From the NCBI RefSeq assembly GCF_900199515.1, contig NZ_LT963434.1:933272-965271 (forward strand): DNA of 32,000 nt, written 5' to 3'. A program made the position numbers and the translations under genes. This DNA is from Massilicoli timonensis (GTDB lineage Bacteria; Bacillota_I; Bacilli_A; Erysipelotrichales; Erysipelotrichaceae). The notes below the pieces were generated by a model. It was not told the origin of the DNA. It ran no database searches and saw only the letters and a list, made by a program, of their open reading frames with translations. The stretch's first letter is position 1. Each line of letters opens with the position of its first letter. This document shows, one piece after another, positions 1 through 31,910 of the stretch.

Positions 1-1098
1 TTCATATTTCGTATCGCTGATTTCAGGAAAATCCGCAAACATATGGCCTTTCAGATATTCCATGATGCTTTCATAATCGCCAAAGCCGGTGCTTGTTTCT
101 CCCAACAGCTGATCCATTACCTCTGGATCGCTCATCAATGCCTCATAAAGATCGTTAAAGCCGTTCTCAAATTCCTGTGTCATCCATTCTTCGATTTCAT
201 CGATCGAACGATCAGAACCGATCCCCGCCTGAAACAGCAGTTCATAGTATTCTTTGCCATGTTCAAACTGTGCCAGCCCTTCCATATGATTATCGCCATC
301 TGTTTGAAATTCGATCATGGCTGCACGAATATCCTCGTAAGCAGGAATAAACGATTCATCAAAGGCCGCTTTCAACTCTTCTTTGTAAGCCTGTGTTTGT
401 TCAGCGCTTAACCCCAGCGCATCTAAACGCGCATAGATAGAAGCCAAGACCGCGCTGTTCTCCCGGTTTTCCAAAATACCGTCACAATGTTCGATGATGC
501 TTTCCAGATCCAGCATCAACAAACCTTTTTCTTCCTGCCGTTTGGTATAATCCAGTGCACTGTCTACATATGGTTTTGTATCACGCAGGATCACGATCAG
601 ATCCTGTACATCTTTTTCATCGCGCAGTTCCCAATCCGCAAAGGTCGTAGCCAAAGCATAGTGTAACCCGCCGGCACTGGAAAACAGGCATTCATAATAA
701 TCAAAACGATCTTCCAACAGTTTTTCTTCGATCGCAAAATTAAATGCATAAAGATCATAAAGCTGACGCTGTTTTTCATTCAGCAGCGATCGATCAAACT
801 CCCCAAAGGCATCGATCGTCTTTTTTCTTTCCGCTTTTCCCGCAGCTAAGGTTTCTTCATCATACCGCGCGCCTAGGCTTACCTCCACTTGTTCCTCATC
901 TACACCAAATTTTTCCGGCTGTTCCATCAGCTGATGCATGGTGGCATAGTCTGACTCCATCGTATTGATAAAATCCTGTTCTACGAACGCATCAAACTTC
1001 TTCTGCTCTTCTTTCGGGTCTTTCCCTCCACAGCCTTGTAATGTGCCGATGAGAAGTGCCGCTGCCAGAAACAGTGTGCTTTTTCTTAGTCGTTTCAT
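1..1098 (-). CDS. DUF885-family lipoprotein, partial (C-terminus lies beyond the window start)
   Basis: Not in the ORF track because it runs off the window edge. ATG at 1098-1096 follows GGGAGG (1101-1106, read on the minus strand). Hand translation gives MKRLRKSTLFLAAALLIGTLQGCGGKDPKEEQKKFDAFVEQDFINTMESDYATMHQLMEQPEKFGV..., a signal peptide with lipobox L-Q-G-C. The frame stays open to position 1 (366 codons). The N-terminal pattern resembles Firmicute DUF885 lipoproteins from memory; the family call is unverified. Confidence 0.6.
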   Translation of the reverse strand, partial: MKRLRKSTLFLAAALLIGTLQGCGGKDPKEEQKKFDAFVEQDFINTMESDYATMHQLMEQPEKFGVDEEQVEVSLGARYDEETLAAGKAERKKTIDAFGEFDRSLLNEKQRQLYDLYAFNFAIEEKLLEDRFDYYECLFSSAGGLHYALATTFADWELRDEKDVQDLIVILRDTKPYVDSALDYTKRQEEKGLLMLDLESIIEHCDGILENRENSAVLASIYARLDALGLSAEQTQAYKEELKAAFDESFIPAYEDIRAAMIEFQTDGDNHMEGLAQFEHGKEYYELLFQAGIGSDRSIDEIEEWMTQEFENGFNDLYEALMSDPEVMDQLLGETSTGFGDYESIMEYLKGHMFADFPEISDTKYE

Positions 1099-1310: not shown

Positions 1311-1877
1311 TTGGCAGTAAAGATCTTTATCGATCAGGGTCATAATCCCGGTTCTATCAACGGCGGAGCGGCTGCCAACGGTTTAGAGGAAGCGACGATC
1401 AATTATCAGGTCGGCATCTATCTGATGAATTTCTTACAGAATGATACACGTTTCGCAGTCATGAGCAGCCGTGTTTCCTCCACTCAGGTATTAGGTACCA
1501 ATTCCGCTACCTCTTTGCAAGAGCGGGTAGCGATGGCCAATACTTGGAGAGCCGACTACTTTATCAGCATTCACTGCAATGCCAACGCCAATCCGCTCAT
1601 TCGCGGCAGTGAAGTATATGTATATCAGATTCCTTCCACTGCTGCTATGCTGGCAAGAGCGGTATTAGATGCCATTACGAGCGAGATCGCGATCCCTGAC
1701 AATCAGGTGCGGGCCAATCCCAATCTGCTGGTGTTAAGAGCAACGGCCATGCCGGCAATCTTAGTAGAACTTGGCTATTTGACCAACAGTGAAGATGCGG
1801 CACTGCTGCGTACAAAACAGTTTCAATTTGCTTATGCGATCTATCAGGGTATCCTGCACTATCTAAATCTGCCATGA
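1311..1877 (+). CDS. N-acetylmuramoyl-L-alanine amidase, catalytic domain only (Amidase_3 type)
   Basis: 188 aa with a TTG start 7 nt after GAAAGAGGTGA. Amidase_3-like motifs: 'IDQGHN' (His), 'GLEE' (Glu), 'ISIHCNA' (His), 'PAILVELGYLTN'. No signal peptide and no wall-binding repeats. Confidence 0.8.
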   Translation: MAVKIFIDQGHNPGSINGGAAANGLEEATINYQVGIYLMNFLQNDTRFAVMSSRVSSTQVLGTNSATSLQERVAMANTWRADYFISIHCNANANPLIRGSEVYVYQIPSTAAMLARAVLDAITSEIAIPDNQVRANPNLLVLRATAMPAILVELGYLTNSEDAALLRTKQFQFAYAIYQGILHYLNLP

Positions 1878-1979: not shown

Positions 1980-2342
1980 TTATTCTTCTTCCACATGCTC
2001 TAAGCCTTGATCAATGATCGTTCGCACATGATCGTCCGCAAGTGAATAGAAAATTGATTTGCCTTCCCGCCGACTTTTGACCAGCTTGTTCTGTTTCAAA
2101 ATACGTAATTGATGAGAAATTGCGGACTGGTTCATATGCAAAGCTTCCGCCAGATCACAGACACAGACCTCCGCCTCCAACAAGATGAACAGAATACGGA
2201 TACGTGTCGAATCACCGAATACTTTGAATAATTCAGCCAGATCATATAATTTCAATTCCGGCGGCATCTTTTCTGCCACGATCTTCAACAGCTCCGCATG
2301 TACTTCTTTTTTCTCACAGCATTCCAATACTTGTTCTTCCAT
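1980..2342 (-). CDS. cadC: ArsR/SmtB-family metalloregulator, CadC/SmtB-like
   Basis: 120 aa. wHTH 'CVCDLAEALHMNQSAISHQLRILKQNKLV'. Cys8-Cys9 in the N-terminal arm plus C60-V-C62 give an alpha3N-type thiolate site. D103-x-H105-x10-H116-x2-E119 matches SmtB alpha5-site spacing. Last gene of the cassette. The symbol is approximate. Confidence 0.85.
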   Translation of the reverse strand: MEEQVLECCEKKEVHAELLKIVAEKMPPELKLYDLAELFKVFGDSTRIRILFILLEAEVCVCDLAEALHMNQSAISHQLRILKQNKLVKSRREGKSIFYSLADDHVRTIIDQGLEHVEEE

Positions 2343-2353
2343 TTTCTACCTCA

Positions 2354-4225
2354 CTAACATCGCTGCACCGATAAGGCGCGGATCGCATTTAATACAGCGA
2401 TTACCATGACTCCGACATCCGCAAAGATCGCCAGCCACATATTGGCGATTCCCACTGCTCCAAGCAGCAGACAAAGCACTTTTACACCGATAGCAAAATA
2501 AATGTTTTCATATACGATGCGGATACACTTTTTGGCAATGCGGATCGCTTTTGCGATCTTGAGCGGATCATCATCCATCAAGACGACATCTGCGGCTTCG
2601 ATCGCTGCATCACTTCCCAGCACTCCCATGGCGATCCCGACATCAGCTCTTGAAAGCACCGGTGCGTCATTGATGCCATCACCCACAAAAGCTACTTTTG
2701 CCTTTGCGTCTTTGCTTGCAAGCAGCTCTTCTACTTTTTCTACTTTGTCTTTTGGTAATAACTCACTATATAATACATCAATTCCCAAGGTTTTGCCAAC
2801 TGCTTTTGCGACATGTTCCCGATCACCGCTCAGCATGACCGTCTTTTTGATGCCGATTTTCTTCAGCTCTTGAATCGCCGCCTTGGCGCTTTCTTTGATC
2901 TGATCGGCTATTAAAAGATGTCCGGCATATTGATTATTCAAAGCGATGTGCACGCTTGTGCCGATACCGCTGCATTCCTGATAAGGGATATGGTGCGTCT
3001 TCATCAAACGTCCGTTTCCCGCCATGACTTTGGTATCATCAATTTGTGCGATCACACCTTGTCCGCTGATTTCTTCTACAGCCTTGATGCGTTTTCCATC
3101 GATTACTTTGCCATAGGCTTCCTGAATGCTCTTGCTAATCGGATGCGTGGAATTCGCTTCCGCATACGCCGCATAAGCGAGCAGTTCTTCTTCCGGTATT
3201 ACCGCATGATGGATTCCACTCAGTGCAAATTCTCCTTTTGTCATCGTTCCTGTCTTGTCAAAGACGACATATCGGGTCTGTGCCAGTGTTTCCAGATAAT
3301 TGGAGCCTTTTACCAAAACCCCAGCCTTGCTGGCACCACCGATACCGGCAAAAAAGGTAAGCGGAATACTGATGACAAGGGCGCAAGGACAGCTGATCAC
3401 CAAGAAAGTCAGCGCTCTGGATATCCACTCTTCCCACATCGGATCCATGCCTAAGATGATCGCGGCAAACGGCGGCAGAAGGGCTAATACAAGCGCACTG
3501 TAACAAACTGCCGGTGTATAGTAACGTGCGAATTTTGAAATAAAATTCTCGGAACGCGATTTTTTAGAACTGGCATTTTCTACTAAATCTAATATTTTGG
3601 AAACGGTTGATTCCGAAAATTCTTTTGTTGTTTTTACTTTGATCAATCCGTTTAGATTGATACAGCCACTCATGATTTCATCATTGACCCTCACTTCACG
3701 CGGCAGGCTTTCCCCGGTCAAGGCGCTAGTATTCAAGGTGGTTTCTCCCTCTATCACAATTCCATCGATCGCAACCTTTTCTCCCGGCTTTACAATGATG
3801 ATCGAGCCGATCGGCACATCCTGTGGATCCACCATTTTGATTTCTCCATTACACTCCATATTGGCATAGTCAGGGCGAATATCCATCAAAGCACTGATAT
3901 TGCGGCGGCTCTTCCCGACTGCATAGCTTTGAAACAGCTCACCGATTTGATAAAACAGCATAACGGCAACACTCTCTTTATAATCTCCAAGCAAAATCGC
4001 ACCGACGGTCGCGATCGCCATTAAAAAGTTTTCATCAAAAATCTGCCTATTGAGAATCCCCTTAACAGCTTTCTTTAGGATATCATAGCCGATAATGAGA
4101 TAAGGGATCATATAAGCTGCCCACTGCGCAAAATCTTCTAATTTCACAAACTGCAATAGGATCATGCCTATTGCCGCAACTAGGATACGTCCCAGCATTC
4201 GTTTTTGTTTATGATTCATCATCAT
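2354..4225 (-). CDS. cadA: Heavy-metal-translocating P1B-type ATPase (Zn/Cd/Pb class), lacking an N-terminal metal-binding domain
   Basis: 623 aa. Motifs: 'TGES', 'SCPCALVISIP' (CPC), 'DKTGTMT', 'STHP', 'GDGINDAP', and 'FADVG' in the last TM. It starts directly with a TM region. The symbol is approximate (cadA/zntA type). Confidence 0.9.
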   Translation of the reverse strand: MMMNHKQKRMLGRILVAAIGMILLQFVKLEDFAQWAAYMIPYLIIGYDILKKAVKGILNRQIFDENFLMAIATVGAILLGDYKESVAVMLFYQIGELFQSYAVGKSRRNISALMDIRPDYANMECNGEIKMVDPQDVPIGSIIIVKPGEKVAIDGIVIEGETTLNTSALTGESLPREVRVNDEIMSGCINLNGLIKVKTTKEFSESTVSKILDLVENASSKKSRSENFISKFARYYTPAVCYSALVLALLPPFAAIILGMDPMWEEWISRALTFLVISCPCALVISIPLTFFAGIGGASKAGVLVKGSNYLETLAQTRYVVFDKTGTMTKGEFALSGIHHAVIPEEELLAYAAYAEANSTHPISKSIQEAYGKVIDGKRIKAVEEISGQGVIAQIDDTKVMAGNGRLMKTHHIPYQECSGIGTSVHIALNNQYAGHLLIADQIKESAKAAIQELKKIGIKKTVMLSGDREHVAKAVGKTLGIDVLYSELLPKDKVEKVEELLASKDAKAKVAFVGDGINDAPVLSRADVGIAMGVLGSDAAIEAADVVLMDDDPLKIAKAIRIAKKCIRIVYENIYFAIGVKVLCLLLGAVGIANMWLAIFADVGVMVIAVLNAIRALSVQRC

Positions 4226-4258
4226 CGCTCCAATCTATCATAAATCTTCCTATTCTTA

Positions 4259-4480
4259 TTAAGAAAGGTAGATTTCGCAATCATCTTCTACGATCTTGCA
4301 CGCCTTACGCACCTGTTCCATGACGGTTTTCACATCAGCGTCATCTTCAAATTCCACTGACATTTTCAAGGTCATAAAATTGACACTGGCATCCTTGACG
4401 CCTTCTGTGCGTTTCGCTGCTTCCTCCATTTTATTTGCGCAGTTTGCGCAGTCCACTTCGATTCGATATGTTTTTCTCAT
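4259..4480 (-). CDS. Stand-alone heavy-metal-associated (HMA) domain protein
   Basis: The track ORF is 87 aa. The start is moved to ATG 4480 (MRKTYRIEVDCANCANKMEE...) because GAGGAG lies 8 nt upstream. The 'DCANCANK' CxxC motif is typical of CadA N-terminal domains. 73 aa. Confidence 0.8.
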   Translation of the reverse strand: MRKTYRIEVDCANCANKMEEAAKRTEGVKDASVNFMTLKMSVEFEDDADVKTVMEQVRKACKIVEDDCEIYLS

Positions 4481-4504
4481 TGTTTCTGCTCCTCTCATTT
4501 TATT

Positions 4505-4524
4505 ATATGAACAGTTGTTCATAT
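4505..4524. promoter_or_regulatory. ArsR/SmtB-type operator, perfect 9-2-9 inverted repeat
   Basis: ATATGAACA-GT-TGTTCATAT. The TGAACA..TGTTCA core is as in CadC/CzrA/SmtB operators. It sits between the predicted -10 (4534-4539) and the HMA start codon (4480). Confidence 0.7.
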
Positions 4525-4666: not shown

Positions 4667-4675
4667 TGATATAAT
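4667..4675 (+). promoter_or_regulatory. Extended -10 promoter (TGATATAAT) placed to give a leaderless transcript of the fusion gene
   Basis: TG-A-TATAAT at 4667-4675, then a 6-nt spacer, then ATG at 4682. No Shine-Dalgarno sequence upstream and no recognisable -35. Confidence 0.45.
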
Positions 4676-4681
4676 ACATTT

Positions 4682-6436
4682 ATGACGAATTTTAGACAGA
4701 AACATTTGATCCTGCCTGCGGCTGTTTCCGTAGGCGTTCTGCTGCTGTCAAACTTAACAGCACTACAATCTGGACACTTTTTGGACATGCAATTGAACGG
4801 AGGTGTTTCTTTTTTCCCTTTTGCTTATCTGGCCGGCAGTTACCTTGCCAAAGCCAATGACAGCCGAATGGTCAAAAGTGTGTACTTGATTGCTTTCACA
4901 GCACAGCTTGCGGTAATTGTGAGCGCGTGGTTGTTGAAGATAGAGGAGAATAGGCTGTGGCTGATGGGAACGCTCCTATGCGCTTATCTCGCCGCAAATT
5001 TCCTCAATGATTGGTTCGTTCGCAGACAAAATCCTCTGATGCTTTCATTTGCACTGTCTCAGCTATTGGCGGTCGCAGTGTTTGGCGTGATCGGTATATC
5101 TGTACTTTTTTCACCAAAAGAAGTCCTCTTTACCGTTTTTATCAATTATGGAGCCGGTATCCTGCTAAGTCTGCTTTGTGTATGGATCGTATTTATGATC
5201 GGTAAATCTGTTCAAAGAAATCGAGATACGTATCAAAATGATAACCGCTTTTATTTTGAAATTACACAAAAAATACCGGGTAAATTGGGACGGGCCGGAA
5301 TCATCCACACGCCTCATGGCGACATCCAAACACCGGCTTTCATGTCAGTAGGCACCAAAGGCGAAGTACGCTTTCTCTCGATGGAGGAATTAAAAAGCGT
5401 CGGTGCCCAGGCTATGCTCAGCAATGGCTATCATTTGCGCAACCGTTCTGTTGAAATTGCGAAACAGGGTGGATTGGCAAAATGGTCCGGTTGGGATGGC
5501 CCTACTTTAACAGATTCAGGCGGCTTTCAGGTAATGTCGCTGGGATCTGGCTTAGGCAAGGTCGTCAGCATGGAGCGGGAAAAAGAGGTTGTCAATACTG
5601 ATCCAAAAGATCGCCTTACGACCGTAAGCGAGGATGGCGTACAGTTTGTGGATCCCTTCACCAATCAGCTTGATTTTATCGGCCCTGAAGAATCGATGCA
5701 GATCCAGTGTCGCATCGGTGCTGATATTCATATGGCATATGATGAGCTTACTTCACTGGCGGACAGTTATGAATACAATGTCGAAGCGCTGGCAAGAACG
5801 GAACGATGGGCGGTACGCTCCTTGAACGAGCATGAAAAGCACTGCGATGATCTTGGCTATCATCAGGCGCTCTATGGTGTGATCCAAGGAGGCAGATGGG
5901 AAGATCTGCGGCGTTCTACCGCTAAAAAATTCGCGAAAATGAACTTTGACGGCTATGGTCTAGGAGGCGCCTTCTTAAAAGAAAACTTAGGTGATATCCT
6001 GCGCTGGTGCAACGAAGAACTGCCGGAACAAAAACCGCGCCATTTATTGGGATTGTCGCGTCCTGATGATATTCTCATCGGTACGGAAATGGGTGCAGAT
6101 ACCTTTGACTGTGTTGCACCGACAAGAGAAGCACGACATGGCCGCATTTATACCAAATACGGAAATATCAATATCAAGAAATTCGCGGACAGCGATGAAC
6201 TCCTGGATGAACACTGTGATTGTCCTACTTGCAAGGCCGGCTACACACGTTCTCAGCTGCGTGCTTTATTGAAGTCAGAAAATCCTGAGGAGCGCAGTCT
6301 CTACTTCAAATTAGCATCTATGCACAATCTGCGTTTCATTATTCGTTTAACTGAAGAAGCGCGTGAAGCAATCATCCAAGGCAACTTTGCAGAGTATAAA
6401 GAACGTTTTTTACGCGATTATTATGGACATCGATAA
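4682..6436 (+). CDS. tgt: Fusion protein: YhhQ/VUT-like (COG1738/DUF165-like) 6-TM domain plus tRNA-guanine transglycosylase (queuine tRNA-ribosyltransferase family) domain
   Basis: 584 aa. Residues ~8-178 form six hydrophobic helices with 'LLLSNLTALQ', 'FFPFAYLA' and 'AANFLNDWFVRR', resembling E. coli YhhQ. Residues ~189-584 are collinear with bacterial Tgt: 'HTPHGDIQTPAFMSVGT', 'LTDSGGFQV', 'YDE', 'GVIQGG', 'FDGYGLGG', 'TFDCVAPTREARHG', and the Zn site 'CDCPTC...H'. The TGT call is strong; the membrane-domain family call is moderate. Confidence 0.85.
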   Translation: MTNFRQKHLILPAAVSVGVLLLSNLTALQSGHFLDMQLNGGVSFFPFAYLAGSYLAKANDSRMVKSVYLIAFTAQLAVIVSAWLLKIEENRLWLMGTLLCAYLAANFLNDWFVRRQNPLMLSFALSQLLAVAVFGVIGISVLFSPKEVLFTVFINYGAGILLSLLCVWIVFMIGKSVQRNRDTYQNDNRFYFEITQKIPGKLGRAGIIHTPHGDIQTPAFMSVGTKGEVRFLSMEELKSVGAQAMLSNGYHLRNRSVEIAKQGGLAKWSGWDGPTLTDSGGFQVMSLGSGLGKVVSMEREKEVVNTDPKDRLTTVSEDGVQFVDPFTNQLDFIGPEESMQIQCRIGADIHMAYDELTSLADSYEYNVEALARTERWAVRSLNEHEKHCDDLGYHQALYGVIQGGRWEDLRRSTAKKFAKMNFDGYGLGGAFLKENLGDILRWCNEELPEQKPRHLLGLSRPDDILIGTEMGADTFDCVAPTREARHGRIYTKYGNINIKKFADSDELLDEHCDCPTCKAGYTRSQLRALLKSENPEERSLYFKLASMHNLRFIIRLTEEAREAIIQGNFAEYKERFLRDYYGHR

Positions 6437-6471
6437 GCGTCTATTCGTATCATGCGAATAAACGCTTTTTT
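6436..6471 (+). terminator. Rho-independent terminator of the fusion gene
   Basis: AGCGT-c-TATTCG-tatcatg-CGAATA-a-ACGCT followed by TTTTT. It starts at the stop codon. Confidence 0.8.
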
Positions 6472-6625
6472 ACTAACCGATTTGTGATAAGAAATGATCA
6501 TTACGATCAGCAATCGCATTGGTCTTTTTTCTACATTCCTAACAAGATCAAGAATGCGCTTTGAAAGACTACCAACGCACGCATCAAAATACGCGCTTAT
6601 TATCCAATCTGCTCCTTTTGCATAG

Positions 6626-21404: not shown

Positions 21405-22370
21405 TTATTCCATATTAGATAAACTGCTATACTTGTTTGAAATACCATCCGATTCTTTGACGCTTTTTCGCTGCGGCAGCTGTGCGATCACGATCGCCAC
21501 AAACATCAGCAGACATCCGATCATTTCCTTTGTGCTTAATACTTCATGCAGAAAGATCCAGCCGGCTATTACCGAAATACAGGATTCTAAGCTCAAGATC
21601 AGCGCCGCAACTGTTGGATTCATATCCTTCTGCCCGACAATCTGCAGCGTATATGCAACTCCACACGACATGATCCCCGCATAAAAAAGCGGAAACGCCG
21701 CCGCAAGCAGCGCCTCTATATCACTGCTTTCAAATAAGAAAGCCGCGATCAAAGTCAATATGCCGCAAATCATAAACTGCATCCAGGAAAGTAATACACC
21801 ATCGACGCGCGACGCAAAGTGATCGATCGCCAATATATGCAAAGAAAACAAAATCGCACTTAGAAACACCAATAGATCACCCAGCGCAAACGTAACCTGT
21901 TCACCCATGCAAAGCAAATATAAACCGCTCATTGCGATGGCGACGGCCATCCAGATCCTAAGTTTGACTTTTTTCTTCATAAAAAGCCCGAGCAAGGGCA
22001 CGATCACAATATAGCTGGAGGTAATGAAACCGGCTTTCCCCACCGTTGTATATTTTACTCCATATGCCTGCAAATTGGAAGCAAACGTAAAAAGCAGACC
22101 ACAGATCATTCCTCCAAATAACGCACTATGACGCAGCGAAGGATAATGAAGCTGTGAAGCAAGCGCCTGCTTTCGCTGTGGAAAGAGGTGATTGAGCAGC
22201 GCCATGCAAGGAAGCAGGAACAAGCCGCCGATCAAGCATCGTACCGCATTAAAAGTCAGCGGTTCTACTCGTTCCATTCCCACGCTCTGCGCCACAAAGG
22301 CAGTTCCCCAGATGGTCGCAGTCAAAAATAATATAAATGAGTTTCGTATTTGTTTTTCCACTTCTATCAC
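21405..22370 (-). CDS. EamA/DMT-superfamily permease
   Basis: 321 aa, about 10 hydrophobic helices. 'TATIWGTAFVAQ' resembles an EamA repeat start. Start uncertain: GTG 22370 has a poor SD, and GTG 22361 is preceded by AGGTGA. Confidence 0.75.
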   Translation of the reverse strand: MIEVEKQIRNSFILFLTATIWGTAFVAQSVGMERVEPLTFNAVRCLIGGLFLLPCMALLNHLFPQRKQALASQLHYPSLRHSALFGGMICGLLFTFASNLQAYGVKYTTVGKAGFITSSYIVIVPLLGLFMKKKVKLRIWMAVAIAMSGLYLLCMGEQVTFALGDLLVFLSAILFSLHILAIDHFASRVDGVLLSWMQFMICGILTLIAAFLFESSDIEALLAAAFPLFYAGIMSCGVAYTLQIVGQKDMNPTVAALILSLESCISVIAGWIFLHEVLSTKEMIGCLLMFVAIVIAQLPQRKSVKESDGISNKYSSLSNME

Positions 22371-27069: not shown

Positions 27070-27183
27070 GACCGGCGAAGTGCTATCTTGACTGAGGCAA
27101 GCCCAGCTATTGTCGCCGCTGAAGTGCTTAACTTCTGTGTTCGGGATGGGAACAGGTGTGTCCACTCCGCTATCATCACCGGA
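27070..27183 (-). rRNA. rrf: 5S ribosomal RNA
   Basis: The reverse complement reads TCCGGTGATGATAGCGGAGTGGACACACCTGTTCCCATCCCGAACACAGAAGTTAAGCACTTCAGCGGCGA...CTTCGCCGG, collinear with B. subtilis 5S. Ends are accurate to about +/-3 nt. Confidence 0.93.
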
Positions 27184-27246
27184 TCCTTTGAAAGGTTCGA
27201 CCTTTCAAAACTGAATATCAGATTCCTTACATGCCTTCCCTGCTTG

Positions 27247-30144
<2,898 letters not shown>

Positions 30145-30374
30145 ACTTCATGCTTTCCGCATGTTCGTGCTTTCGCTTCTTCTTGCTTCAGTGAACGGTT
30201 TAACTATTTTTTCTCTTAACTGCTTTTCCTCAGTTCCTTAGTTTTTCCGTTTCTTTTCAGAAAGATCATGTATGTCTTCTGTTTATTCAGTTTTCAAAGA
30301 TCGAGTTCCCTTGGGTCGCCTCTCGGCCTCCCAAAACTAAACAGGAATCCGTCCTCTTACACTCTTTCTCCTTA

Positions 30375-31910
<1,536 letters not shown>

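Follow-up and report, generated by a model that had tools for sequence, protein, structure and literature searches.

Does a gene that joins a queuosine-precursor transporter (QPTR) to a tRNA-guanine transglycosylase (TGT) encode a working importer-enzyme module? The question is raised by the tgt gene of Massilicoli timonensis (Erysipelotrichaceae), which lies in the window analyzed here, a 32,000-nucleotide stretch of DNA. The initial annotation read this gene as a possibly new architecture, an in-frame joining of a complete TGT to a six-helix membrane domain that resembles Escherichia coli YhhQ and would import the base that the enzyme inserts. The in-frame fusion of a YhhQ/QPTR-derived six-helix domain to a complete TGT stands, the architecture is not new, and a working module is unlikely. 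The Massilicoli gene probably encodes a membrane-tethered TGT that derives from a qptr-tgt fusion and whose eroded importer half no longer transports.

The fused gene and its expression signals

The qptr-tgt gene is a single uninterrupted ORF (Table 1), as first described, and its 584-codon frame is unbroken in at least seven DNA haplotypes of M. timonensis from dozens of independent assemblies. At least 11 protein haplotypes of 584 amino acids were found, two of which are indexed in 71 and 86 collection blocks. The same frame and the locus order ATPase, HMA, fusion gene, rplQ (the convergent downstream neighbor), and rpoA recur in independent Logan, ENA, and NCBI assemblies, and the gene is widespread and stable across gut metagenomes. 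NCBI records hold shortened Tgt calls of 413 and 549 amino acids for the Massilicoli gene. The 413-amino-acid call (P0121, locus L082) was rejected as a truncated gene, as it reflects the choice of start in annotation and the frame of L082 has the full 584 codons; a split locus (L083) was rejected as a pair of genes because a scaffold N-gap divides it.

Table 1. Features of the Massilicoli qptr-tgt gene (positions in the window)
Feature	Position	Strand	Basis or remark
Extended -10 promoter box, TGaTATAAT	4667..4675	+	Ends 6 nt before ATG; TGnTATAAT-N6-ATG conserved in clade
qptr-tgt fusion ORF	4682..6436	+	ATG at 4682, TAA at 6434-6436; 584 codons plus stop, no interruption
Eroded QPTR/YhhQ (Vut_1)-derived membrane domain, residues 1 to ~178	4682..5215	+	Six predicted helices
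In-frame deletion 1 (15 codons lost, T97/L98)	4970..4975	+	Alignment columns 155-169
In-frame deletion 2 (12 codons lost, P118/L119; loop 4-5)	5033..5038	+	Alignment columns 191-202
Fusion junction, residues 175-190 (KSVQRNRDTYQNDNRF)	5204..5251	+	DNA alignment with two-gene relatives
Complete tRNA-guanine(34) transglycosylase domain, residues 189-584	5246..6433	+	PF01702, TIGR00430, Z. mobilis TGT structures
Asp278, equivalent to Z. mobilis TGT Asp102 (TDSGGFQ motif)	5513..5515	+	HMMER alignment to PDB TGT chains
22-residue insertion, residues 290-311	5549..5614	+	Specific to this Erysipelotrichaceae TGT subfamily
D354-E355-L356	5741..5749	+	Asp156 kept (D354); Leu356 at Cys158 position
A430-F431-L432-K433-E434	5969..5983	+	In place of canonical pocket segment L231-A232-V233-G234-E235
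Asp476, equivalent to catalytic nucleophile Asp280 (FDCV motif)	6107..6109	+	HMMER alignment to PDB TGT chains
Zn site C512, C514, C517, H548	6215..6325	+	Aligned to Z. mobilis C318, C320, C323, H349
Intrinsic terminator, hairpin and U-tract	6435..6473	+	Directly after stop; RNA fold -14.8 kcal/mol, z = -4.4

The extended -10 box, 6 nt ahead of an ATG, is conserved upstream of qptr or of the fusion gene in nearly every relative that was compared. Shine-Dalgarno pairing is missing at codon 1 (dG -2.2), and the transcript from this box would be leaderless, its start being placed by sequence conservation only. At Rfam gathering thresholds, no preQ1 riboswitch was found upstream, nor any RNA family except rRNA. 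At the other end of the gene, none of 200 shuffled sequences folds as well as the terminator hairpin, which directly follows the stop codon, and the fusion gene is thus monocistronic.

Two-gene relatives have overlaps of the AAAGGAA...ATGA type at the equivalent position, and alignment of their DNA with the Massilicoli junction shows that it has lost three ancestral elements: the Shine-Dalgarno site and ATG of tgt and the stop codon of qptr. This agrees with the earlier description of a junction with neither a stop nor an internal start preceded by a Shine-Dalgarno site. Pairing of the internal Met172 with the 16S tail of this genome is weak: its dG of -4.9 lies close to the background (-4.1) and far from the median of the window's real genes (-10.2).

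The transglycosylase half

A bona fide bacterial TGT makes up the C-terminal 396 residues and is complete from residue ~189, as had been proposed. PF01702 matches residues 203 to 581 with an E value of 2.6e-107 (359.4 bits against a cutoff of 26.3), the NCBIfam Tgt equivalog TIGR00430 scores 332.8 bits against a cutoff of 306.75, and Z. mobilis TGT structures match this half at an E value of about 1e-67. The catalytic Asp residues (D278, D354, and D476) and the CxCxxC...H Zn site are invariant in the clade. Judged by its sequence, this half works as a transglycosylase under strong constraint and belongs to an Erysipelotrichaceae-specific subfamily.

With the canonical TGTs of Z. mobilis and E. 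coli (many PDB entries, 1ENU and 4E2V among them), the Massilicoli enzyme has in common Asp102, Asp156, Asp280, the Zn site, and a collinear TIM-barrel sequence; it differs from them in its N-terminal membrane domain, in the residues of its pocket, and in the insertion that follows the TDSGGFQ strand. This insertion is present in all clade loci, where the spacing between motifs is 71 residues rather than 49, and is missing from the Z. mobilis and E. coli enzymes. Cys158 and Val233 show high conservation across the Tgt enzymes of bacteria, and Cys158 affects the affinity for preQ1 (PMC3660597). Here, Leu356 takes the place of Cys158 and A-F-L-K that of L231-A232-V233-G234, with Leu432 at the Val233 position, and the whole clade has DEL and GG-AFLKE in these segments. 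Because the pocket is noncanonical, preQ1 cannot safely be inferred as the substrate of this TGT subfamily. The clade tgt also never adjoins queA, unlike canonical tgt: a search of every locus found no queA within 10 kb of tgt anywhere in the clade.

A QPTR is paired with a TGT that has a Leu at the Cys158 position in Chlamydia as well. As it is described in PMC11130926 and PMC12301720, Chlamydia trachomatis salvages queuine directly with a QPTR and a "BL-TGT" (Yuan et al. 2019), whose signature combines Leu at the Cys158 position with Gly at the Val233 position (PMC12301720). The Massilicoli subfamily shares the Leu (Leu356) but has Leu432 rather than Gly at position 233 and so falls outside this signature, and the Chlamydia genes are separate. 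For Holdemanella sp., from a related genus with this TGT subfamily, TGT is tabulated and QueA, QueG, and QueH are not, a profile that the authors take to be one of queuine salvage (PMC11130926/PMC12301720).

Descent and erosion of the membrane half

The initial annotation tied the identity of the membrane half to a significant Vut_1 match for residues 1 to 185, and formally the Pfam score falls short, at 18.4 bits against a gathering threshold of 27.2 (E = 0.0029; profile positions 2 to 151/152) and 13.4 bits in the full-length context. E. coli YhhQ, an importer of preQ0 and preQ1 (Zallot et al. 2017, PMC5372724), gives no tblastn match in the window at 1e-5, and it does match intact members of the clade. 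Closer relatives supply the connection. In BLASTP, the N-terminal domain matches the QPTR half of one clade fusion (P0002) at 5e-20 and the QPTRs of Traorella and Longicatena at 1e-12 to 1e-14, and a clade-specific QPTR HMM gives it 43.8 bits (E = 5.5e-12), intact copies scoring 329 to 391 bits. The domain also occupies the same position as the qptr of relatives, with the same start codon and promoter. When 1.84 billion representatives were searched exhaustively with phmmer, only five weak matches came back, all of them Vut_1 proteins and covering residues 1 to ~110. A word-indexed search with the N-terminal 188 residues alone returned no match, even though a 99%-identical protein (P0001) exists, and this result was put down to the insensitivity of the search. 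By these alignments, the descent of the N-terminal ~185 residues from a QPTR/YhhQ (Vut_1) gene is established, through closer relatives only.

An AlphaFold (AF2) model of residues 1 to 190, of moderate confidence (pLDDT 68), predicts helices at residues 3 to 28, 41 to 58, 61 to 84, 89 to 114, 119 to 140, and 145 to 181, in keeping with the six helices that had been recognized by eye. The landmarks named for TM1 ("SN"), TM2 ("FPF"), and TM4 ("AY...") fall in the same alignment columns as those of E. coli YhhQ, which belongs to the same family, has six helices in the inner membrane, and is encoded by a stand-alone gene; the motifs "SN" in TM1 and "GG..FP" in TM2 survive. With both termini predicted to be cytoplasmic, the inside segments carry 10 Lys and Arg residues and the outside segments 3, a topology that agrees with the proposed cytoplasmic location of the TGT domain. 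The GRAVY value of the membrane half, 0.80, exceeds the 0.29 ± 0.19 expected at random. The best Foldseek matches in the PDB, which holds no QPTR structure, are ECF S-components (TM about 0.49; E about 0.3), and none of them is significant.

The membrane half is eroded. Its Vut_1 score of 18.4 bits compares with 137 for Traorella and 41 to 44 for other eroded fusions, and its identity to intact QPTRs is 29%, whereas intact pairs average 69%; the TGT half is ~80 to 81% identical in both comparisons. Two deletions, both multiples of three, have removed ~27 residues in total, the first of them taking out loop 3-4 and the start of TM4 with a family-invariant Arg. E. coli YhhQ, P0139, and 13 intact clade members share the same residue in 21 alignment columns, and the Massilicoli domain keeps 11 of these and has lost 10, including both Asp residues and the Arg, which are all three of the conserved charged residues. 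The losses comprise Asp to S53, Asp to A130, the deleted Arg, Ser to L98, Pro to W168, Gly to D35, a deleted Phe, Ala to G138, Phe to I139, and Ala to V152. Such a loss of conserved residues suggests, and does not prove, a loss of function.

Polymorphism within the species sets the two halves apart. Among the haplotypes, the QPTR half has 12 nonsynonymous and 3 synonymous segregating sites (pN/pS 1.25; P = 1.0 against neutrality; 15 sites, one species), and the TGT half has 1 nonsynonymous and 12 synonymous sites (pN/pS 0.02; P = 1.3e-7 against neutrality; 13 sites, one species). The difference between the halves, which were compared in the same haplotypes, is significant by Fisher's test (P = 1.7e-4); both counts of sites are small. 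A first pairwise comparison had given a pN/pS of 2.2 for the QPTR half, whose polymorphic sites cluster in a cytoplasmic loop at a deletion scar. The frame itself has been kept, and no haplotype has a stop in the first 171 codons; among composition-matched shuffles, a fraction of only 5e-5 is stop free, and the other two frames over these codons contain 14 and 4 stops.

Three more fused genes are eroded, with clade HMM scores of 193 (L011), 137 (L007), and 75 bits (L006). Their QPTR halves are mutually 32 to 35% identical and their TGT halves 88 to 91%, a pattern in which erosion appears to recur independently in other fused genes.

Origin of the fusion and competing readings

Intact and fused forms of the gene pair coexist among the relatives. 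In Traorella, Longicatena, Faecalitalea, and others, an intact qptr of 210 to 214 amino acids lies directly upstream of tgt and overlaps it by 4 to 14 nt; Merdibacter, Copranaerobaculum, and Faecalicoccus have intact in-frame QPTR-TGT fusions; and stand-alone TGTs of 402 to 406 amino acids in related genera begin at the equivalent linker. Fusions occur in at least 15 Erysipelotrichaceae species representatives. No flank synteny was found with Traorella, Longicatena, Copranaerobaculum, and others, and orthology therefore rests on the gene pair itself. Because a neighbor-joining tree of the TGT domains is too weakly resolved for fusion events to be counted, the claim is limited to an interleaving of the states. 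The two-gene operon of Traorella, Longicatena, Faecalitalea, Ileibacterium, and Allobaculum holds the closest TGTs (79 to 83% identity) and a homologous membrane gene with the same start codon behind the same -10 box. Unlike Massilicoli, it consists of two ORFs (in Allobaculum ~160 nt apart rather than overlapping), its tgt has its own Shine-Dalgarno site and ATG, and its qptr is intact (329 to 391 bits).

The ancestor of the Massilicoli gene was probably a qptr and a tgt that overlapped by a few bases, behind a promoter abutting the qptr ATG. Joining the two into one frame would have cost qptr its stop and tgt both its ribosome-binding site and its start codon. With the latter two gone, TGT would be made only by translation through the former transporter, and the eroded membrane half would persist because the TGT has no start codon of its own. 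The transporter half would since have lost its family-defining polar residues and ~27 residues of its length, its amino acid sequence drifting almost neutrally. All that would still be maintained in it are the open frame, the hydrophobic helices, and the six passes with positive-inside charges, which, with their even number, would keep the TGT domain in the cytoplasm. A half that is eroded and yet open, hydrophobic, and six-pass is most likely an N-terminal membrane anchor and translated leader rather than an importer, and the 7-deazaguanine substrate presumably enters the cell by another route.

A doubtful extension of this scenario, offered tentatively, joins two linked readings. In the first, the fusion has trapped a dead transporter: because the TGT no longer has a start to itself, the decaying QPTR half can be neither interrupted nor deleted and would drift as an open hydrophobic leader, a state that would have arisen independently at least four times in the Erysipelotrichaceae (the window, L006, L007, and L011). 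In the second, the QPTR-linked TGT subfamily may be a third bacterial TGT specificity class, which would insert queuine or another 7-deazaguanine directly and which in Massilicoli would act at the membrane next to another importer. The features behind the third-class reading are Leu at both positions 158 and 233, the 22-residue insertion, a tgt that never adjoins queA, and the tabulation of Holdemanella without QueA, QueG, and QueH.

That the protein is a working one-polypeptide salvage module, whose membrane domain imports preQ1, preQ0, or queuine and hands the base to the tethered TGT, is unlikely. The architecture equals that of the intact fusions of related genera, where this reading is plausible (PMC11130926); six helices, topology signals, and the TM1 and TM2 motifs are retained; the frame is open; and the preserved hydrophobicity and topology could reflect a functional, highly diverged transporter. 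Against this, the Vut_1 score lies under the Pfam threshold, 10 of 21 invariants are gone along with 27 residues in two deletions, polymorphism is neutral looking next to a TGT half under strong purifying selection, the divergence from intact QPTRs is that of an outlier, and the diverged sequence has no relatives that share it.

It is also quite unlikely that a soluble TGT is made from the internal Met172, the start of the 413-amino-acid NCBI call, with codons 1 to 171 an untranslated or irrelevant remnant of a qptr pseudogene. The names and lengths of the two NCBI records, the neutral-looking polymorphism upstream, and the stand-alone TGTs that start at the equivalent linker fit this reading. 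It is opposed by the near-background pairing of Met172 with the 16S tail, by the full 584-codon frame of the genome behind the 413-amino-acid call and the scaffold gap behind the split locus, and by the conserved promoter, which puts the transcript start at codon 1. In addition, so diverged a sequence should hold stops and holds none, both deletions are in frame, and hydrophobicity has been kept.

Very improbable, in turn, is a repurposing of the membrane domain under positive selection, in which fast divergence would have fitted it to a new substrate or made it a sensor or a dock beside another importer. A pN/pS at or above 1, helices and topology that are kept, and the wide and stable occurrence of the gene in gut metagenomes would suit it; no new sequence pattern is conserved, though, the diverged form is confined to one species, other eroded fusions differ from Massilicoli as much as from each other, and the polymorphisms, clustered at a deletion scar, do not depart from neutrality (P = 1.0). 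An artifact, in which a 1-nt sequencing or assembly error merged two genes that overlap out of frame in the nearest relatives and that one indel could make to look fused, has a negligible probability and is ruled out by the independent assemblies, as the identical frame occurs in seven DNA haplotypes from separate projects and assemblers and the junction departs from the two-gene form by a missing ATG, Shine-Dalgarno site, and stop rather than by one base.

The eroded membrane anchor that we favor belongs to an architecture that is already catalogued, and the claim of novelty falls for this reason. Quaiyum et al. (2024, Epigenomes 8:16; PMC11130926, section 2.2 and Table S1) describe QPTR (PF02592) fused to bTGT, with A0A6N8U7W4 of Copranaerobaculum intestinale and A0A7W8D4S3 of Faecalicoccus acidiformans (615 amino acids each) among the entries, and such fusions are present in UniProt. 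The Massilicoli gene has this architecture, both domains lying in one continuous ORF with the QPTR N-terminal. The catalogued fusions resemble it in domain order, the linker motif Y-Q/K-N-x-N-x-F-x-F-E, TGT subfamily, overall identity (59 to 64%), and promoter and start arrangement. They differ in an intact Vut_1 domain (with a Pfam match on record and 366 to 389 bits in the clade HMM, against 44 bits in Massilicoli), the Massilicoli domain being ~27 residues shorter, devoid of the conserved Asp, Arg, and Asp, and neutral looking in its evolution.

With the importer-TGT fusion published, the Massilicoli gene is an added example whose particularity is the eroded transporter half. Inference from architecture alone would mislabel its product as a transporter-enzyme module, the NCBI pipeline silently trims the membrane part, and inventories of queuosine salvage in gut bacteria should look for erosion wherever a domain or a fusion is what scores a QPTR as present. 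An intact operon, an intact fusion, an eroded fusion, and tgt alone occur in one family, which would offer a clean natural case of a fusion freezing a decaying domain. The noncanonical pocket of the clade TGT and its uncoupling from queA make the choice between preQ1 and queuine as substrate directly testable, and this question bears on the traffic of queuine between gut bacteria and their host. Transporter domains are also fused to TGT in the Tsukamurella MFS-TGT and MMPL-TGT proteins (PMC11130926, Table S1), which, unlike the Massilicoli protein, involve unrelated transporter families, are 821 to 1,398 amino acids long, and come from Actinomycetota hosts.

A degenerate form of a known fusion

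The qptr-tgt gene of the window is a degenerate variant of a fusion already on record. Quaiyum et al. (2024) looked specifically for bTGT proteins that also carry a transporter domain, found three domains of this kind, and named QPTR (PF02592/COG1738) among them (PMC11130926), and the novelty that the initial annotation had entertained for this architecture falls away. The entries in their Table S1 for Copranaerobaculum intestinale and Faecalicoccus acidiformans, the species of loci L009 and L012 in the present survey, are 615 aa proteins given as "PF01702 TGT; PF02592 Vut_1" (PMC11130926). The claimed single uninterrupted reading frame of 584 codons was confirmed, being open from the ATG at 4682 to the stop at 6434-6436. 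A database protein of 584 aa (P0001) is 99% identical to the window protein and heads a 65-member cluster, the named members of which come from Massilicoli timonensis (Erysipelotrichaceae), which also goes by "Candidatus Onthosoma merdavium". The gene order of P-type ATPase, HMA protein, fusion, and convergent rplQ and rpoA is the same in assemblies of independent origin from Logan, ENA, and NCBI, and this recurrence of gene and context rules out an assembly artifact. For two haplotypes of 584 aa, the collection index lists 71 and 86 blocks. One apparently split locus was rejected as a pair of genes because it contains a scaffold gap (N's). The Pfam hits recorded for the 584 aa form are to TGT only, and NCBI gene calls start internally, giving 413 aa from Met172 (WP_346769764.1/HIR15185.1) and 549 aa from Met36 (WP_276833324.1), both named "Tgt"; the genome that yielded the 413 aa call keeps a fully intact frame upstream of Met172. 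This naming and these internal starts conceal the membrane domain in public annotations.

A scan of one genome per species yielded 59 close loci; a few come from Saccharibacteria MAGs and one from a Methanobrevibacter contig, and the rest are from Erysipelotrichaceae. Merdibacter, C. intestinale, F. acidiformans, and several MAGs carry an in-frame fusion with an intact Vut_1 domain. Traorella, Longicatena, Faecalitalea, and Ileibacterium have two genes, with an intact qptr of 210 to 214 aa overlapping tgt by 4 to 14 nt, and Allobaculum has a gap in place of the overlap. In Holdemanella, Amedibacillus, Absicoccus, Breznakia, and others, tgt stands alone. The membrane half of the window protein begins at the same codon as the qptr of its relatives and is homologous to the clade QPTRs, with BLASTP E values of 5e-20 to P0002, a related database protein with a QPTR half, and 1e-12 to 1e-14 to the QPTRs of Traorella and Longicatena. 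The N-terminal 188 aa, used alone as the query, found nothing in a word-indexed protein search, although the database contains a 96%-identical sequence (P0001); such an index may suit hydrophobic queries poorly.

Erosion and residual constraint in the membrane half

The N-terminal 188 residues, which include the domain that the initial annotation likened to YhhQ/Vut_1, score 18.4 bits against Vut_1 (PF02592; E = 0.0029), which is below the gathering score of 27.2 and formally short of the significant hit that the initial annotation had asked for, and the match spans profile positions 2 to 151 of 152. The Vut_1 scores of Traorella, L007, L006, and the window are 137, 44, 41, and 18 bits, respectively. 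On a clade QPTR profile built from 13 intact members, intact domains score 330 to 391 bits, and the window membrane half scores 44 bits. L011 (9830-11866), L007 (9926-11800), and L006 (2866-4707), which are fused qptr-tgt genes of the Merdibacter group with partly eroded transporter halves, score 193, 137, and 75 bits on the same profile. Pairwise mean identities among intact relatives are 69% for QPTR and 80% for TGT, and those of the window to the intact relatives are 29% and 81%, respectively. The window membrane half carries two in-frame deletions (15 and 12 codons) and keeps 11 of the 21 columns that are invariant from Escherichia coli YhhQ through the intact clade, with losses that include both aspartates, the arginine, a serine, and a proline. 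An exhaustive phmmer search with this domain against 1.84 billion representative proteins found only five matches (best E = 2.9e-6), all of them Vut_1 proteins aligned to residues 1 to about 110 only. The QPTR halves of the eroded fusions are 29 to 35% identical to one another, which is as unlike as they are to intact ones, and they have diverged even where the TGT halves are 88 to 91% identical; this pattern indicates repeated, independent decay and not a shared move toward a new function. Judged from these comparisons, the importer half in the window probably no longer imports.

In a small sample of seven distinct DNA haplotypes from one species, codons 1 to 188 have 12 nonsynonymous and 3 synonymous segregating sites (pN/pS of 1.25; P = 1.0 versus neutral), and the TGT domain has 1 and 12 (pN/pS of 0.02; P = 1.3e-7), the two domains differing by Fisher's exact test (P = 1.7e-4). 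Several features of the membrane half nevertheless stay constrained, namely, the open frame, the in-frame deletions, hydrophobicity, charge distribution, and six predicted helices. Every haplotype keeps the 171 codons before Met172 free of stops, as do only 5e-5 of shuffles matched in composition; in the other two frames, 14 and 4 stops occur. The length of each deletion is divisible by three. The GRAVY value is 0.80, whereas intact domains have 0.96 and random translations have 0.29 ± 0.19, and 10 Lys and Arg residues lie on predicted cytoplasmic segments versus 3 outside. AlphaFold predicts the six helices with moderate confidence; no QPTR structure was found in the PDB.

Expression of the fusion and alternative readings

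Since a conserved extended -10 box ends exactly six bases before the ATG, codon 1 of the fusion shows no Shine-Dalgarno pairing, and an Rfam search detected no riboswitch upstream of it, a leaderless mRNA is suggested for qptr(-tgt) across the clade. Many QPTR genes have an upstream preQ1 riboswitch, whereas those of the Erysipelotrichaceae clade apparently have none. Two-gene relatives have the qptr stop, the tgt ATG, and a ribosome-binding site of the AAAGGAA type at the junction, and all three are absent from the aligned window junction. A strong hairpin with a U-tract lies directly 3' of the fusion stop codon.

The simplest account, which we regard as fairly probable, is that fusion would have made TGT translation depend on the upstream frame, that transporter function may then have become dispensable, and that the membrane half may since have drifted, being kept only as a translated, membrane-inserting leader, the even number of membrane passes of which would keep TGT in the cytoplasm. 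The initial annotation had proposed an importer joined to TGT as a queuosine salvage module. A QPTR-derived domain fused to a complete TGT stands, but with the membrane half eroded, it is unlikely to be a still-working importer, its open frame and six predicted helices notwithstanding. A soluble TGT started at Met172, as in the 413 aa gene call, appears slightly less probable still, as Met172 has no ribosome-binding site (dG of -4.9; the in-ORF background is -4.1, and the real genes of the window have a median of -10.2). Repurposing of the membrane half is hardly plausible, as the mutual divergence of the eroded fusions favors independent decay.

The TGT half and neighboring genes

The claim of a complete TGT domain proved correct. 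Pfam TGT covers residues 203 to 581 (E = 2.6e-107), the NCBIfam Tgt equivalog TIGR00430 is passed (332.8 bits; cutoff, 306.75), and the protein aligns to Zymomonas mobilis TGT structures at an E value of about 1e-67. Asp102, Asp156, and Asp280 of Z. mobilis correspond to D278, D354, and D476, and the Zn ligands Cys318, Cys320, Cys323, and His349 correspond to C512, C514, C517, and H548. Canonical outgroup TGTs have DEC and L[A/S]VGE and no insertion, whereas clade TGTs show Leu158, A-F-L-K-E, and a 22-residue insertion. Cys158 and Val233 are regarded as the residues that decide whether the specificity is for preQ1 or queuine (PMC3660597), and the corresponding residues in queuine-inserting TGTs of the Chlamydia type are Leu and Gly (PMC12301720); the clade TGT has Leu at both positions, a combination that fits neither. 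For one Holdemanella genome, whose TGT is of the same subfamily, TGT is tabulated as present and QueA, QueG, and QueH as absent, a profile read by the table's authors as direct queuine salvage. queA never adjoins tgt in the Erysipelotrichaceae clade loci and is adjacent in outgroups only, but queA does lie next to tgt in two Saccharibacteria loci that carry Leu158, which counts against the queuine salvage reading. By its residues, the clade TGT is noncanonical. In some of its members (those of Allobaculum, Ileibacterium, and Absicoccus), the Glu235-equivalent residue is also replaced.

The same TGT subfamily, at 54 to 76% identity, occurs in Saccharibacteria/Nanosyncoccus MAGs (L042, L047, and L049), and it is also found on a 2.5-kb Methanobrevibacter curvatus contig (L057); qptr adjoins tgt in L042, L047, and L057. 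Its presence in CPR Saccharibacteria and on an archaeal contig could be due to horizontal transfer or contamination.

Features of the window and their positions
Feature	Position	Strand	Remark
ORF of 122 aa, no Pfam match	43-411	+	Upstream of the amidase gene
N-acetylmuramoyl-L-alanine amidase gene	1311-1877		
ArsR-family HTH_5 regulator	1980-2342	-	
CadA/ZntA-like P-type ATPase	2354-4225	-	
Small HMA-domain protein	4259-4522	-	
Extended -10 box TGnTATAAT, exactly 6 nt, ATG	4667-4684	+	Conserved upstream of the qptr or fusion start in the window and essentially all relatives (L001-L054)
qptr-tgt fusion	4682-6436	+	
22-residue insertion	5549-5614	+	Every clade locus (L001-L059)
Leu at the Cys158 position	5747-5749	+	Every clade locus (L001-L059)
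A-F-L-K-E replacing L-A-V-G-E (positions 231-235)	5969-5983	+	Erysipelotrichaceae TGT clade
str/S10/spc/alpha ribosomal-protein array (rplQ, rpoA, rpsK, rpsM, map, adk, secY ... tuf, fusA)	6682-26782	-	
EamA/DMT-family transporter gene	21405-22370	-	Between the S10 ribosomal-protein operon and tuf
Complete rRNA operon (5S, 23S, 16S)	27070-31910	-	

No evidence was found tying the EamA/DMT transporter gene to queuosine precursors. A metal resistance cluster (1980-4522) is divergent from the fusion gene, and its HMA protein probably starts in reality at the internal Met15, for which there is a GGGGAG ribosome-binding site.
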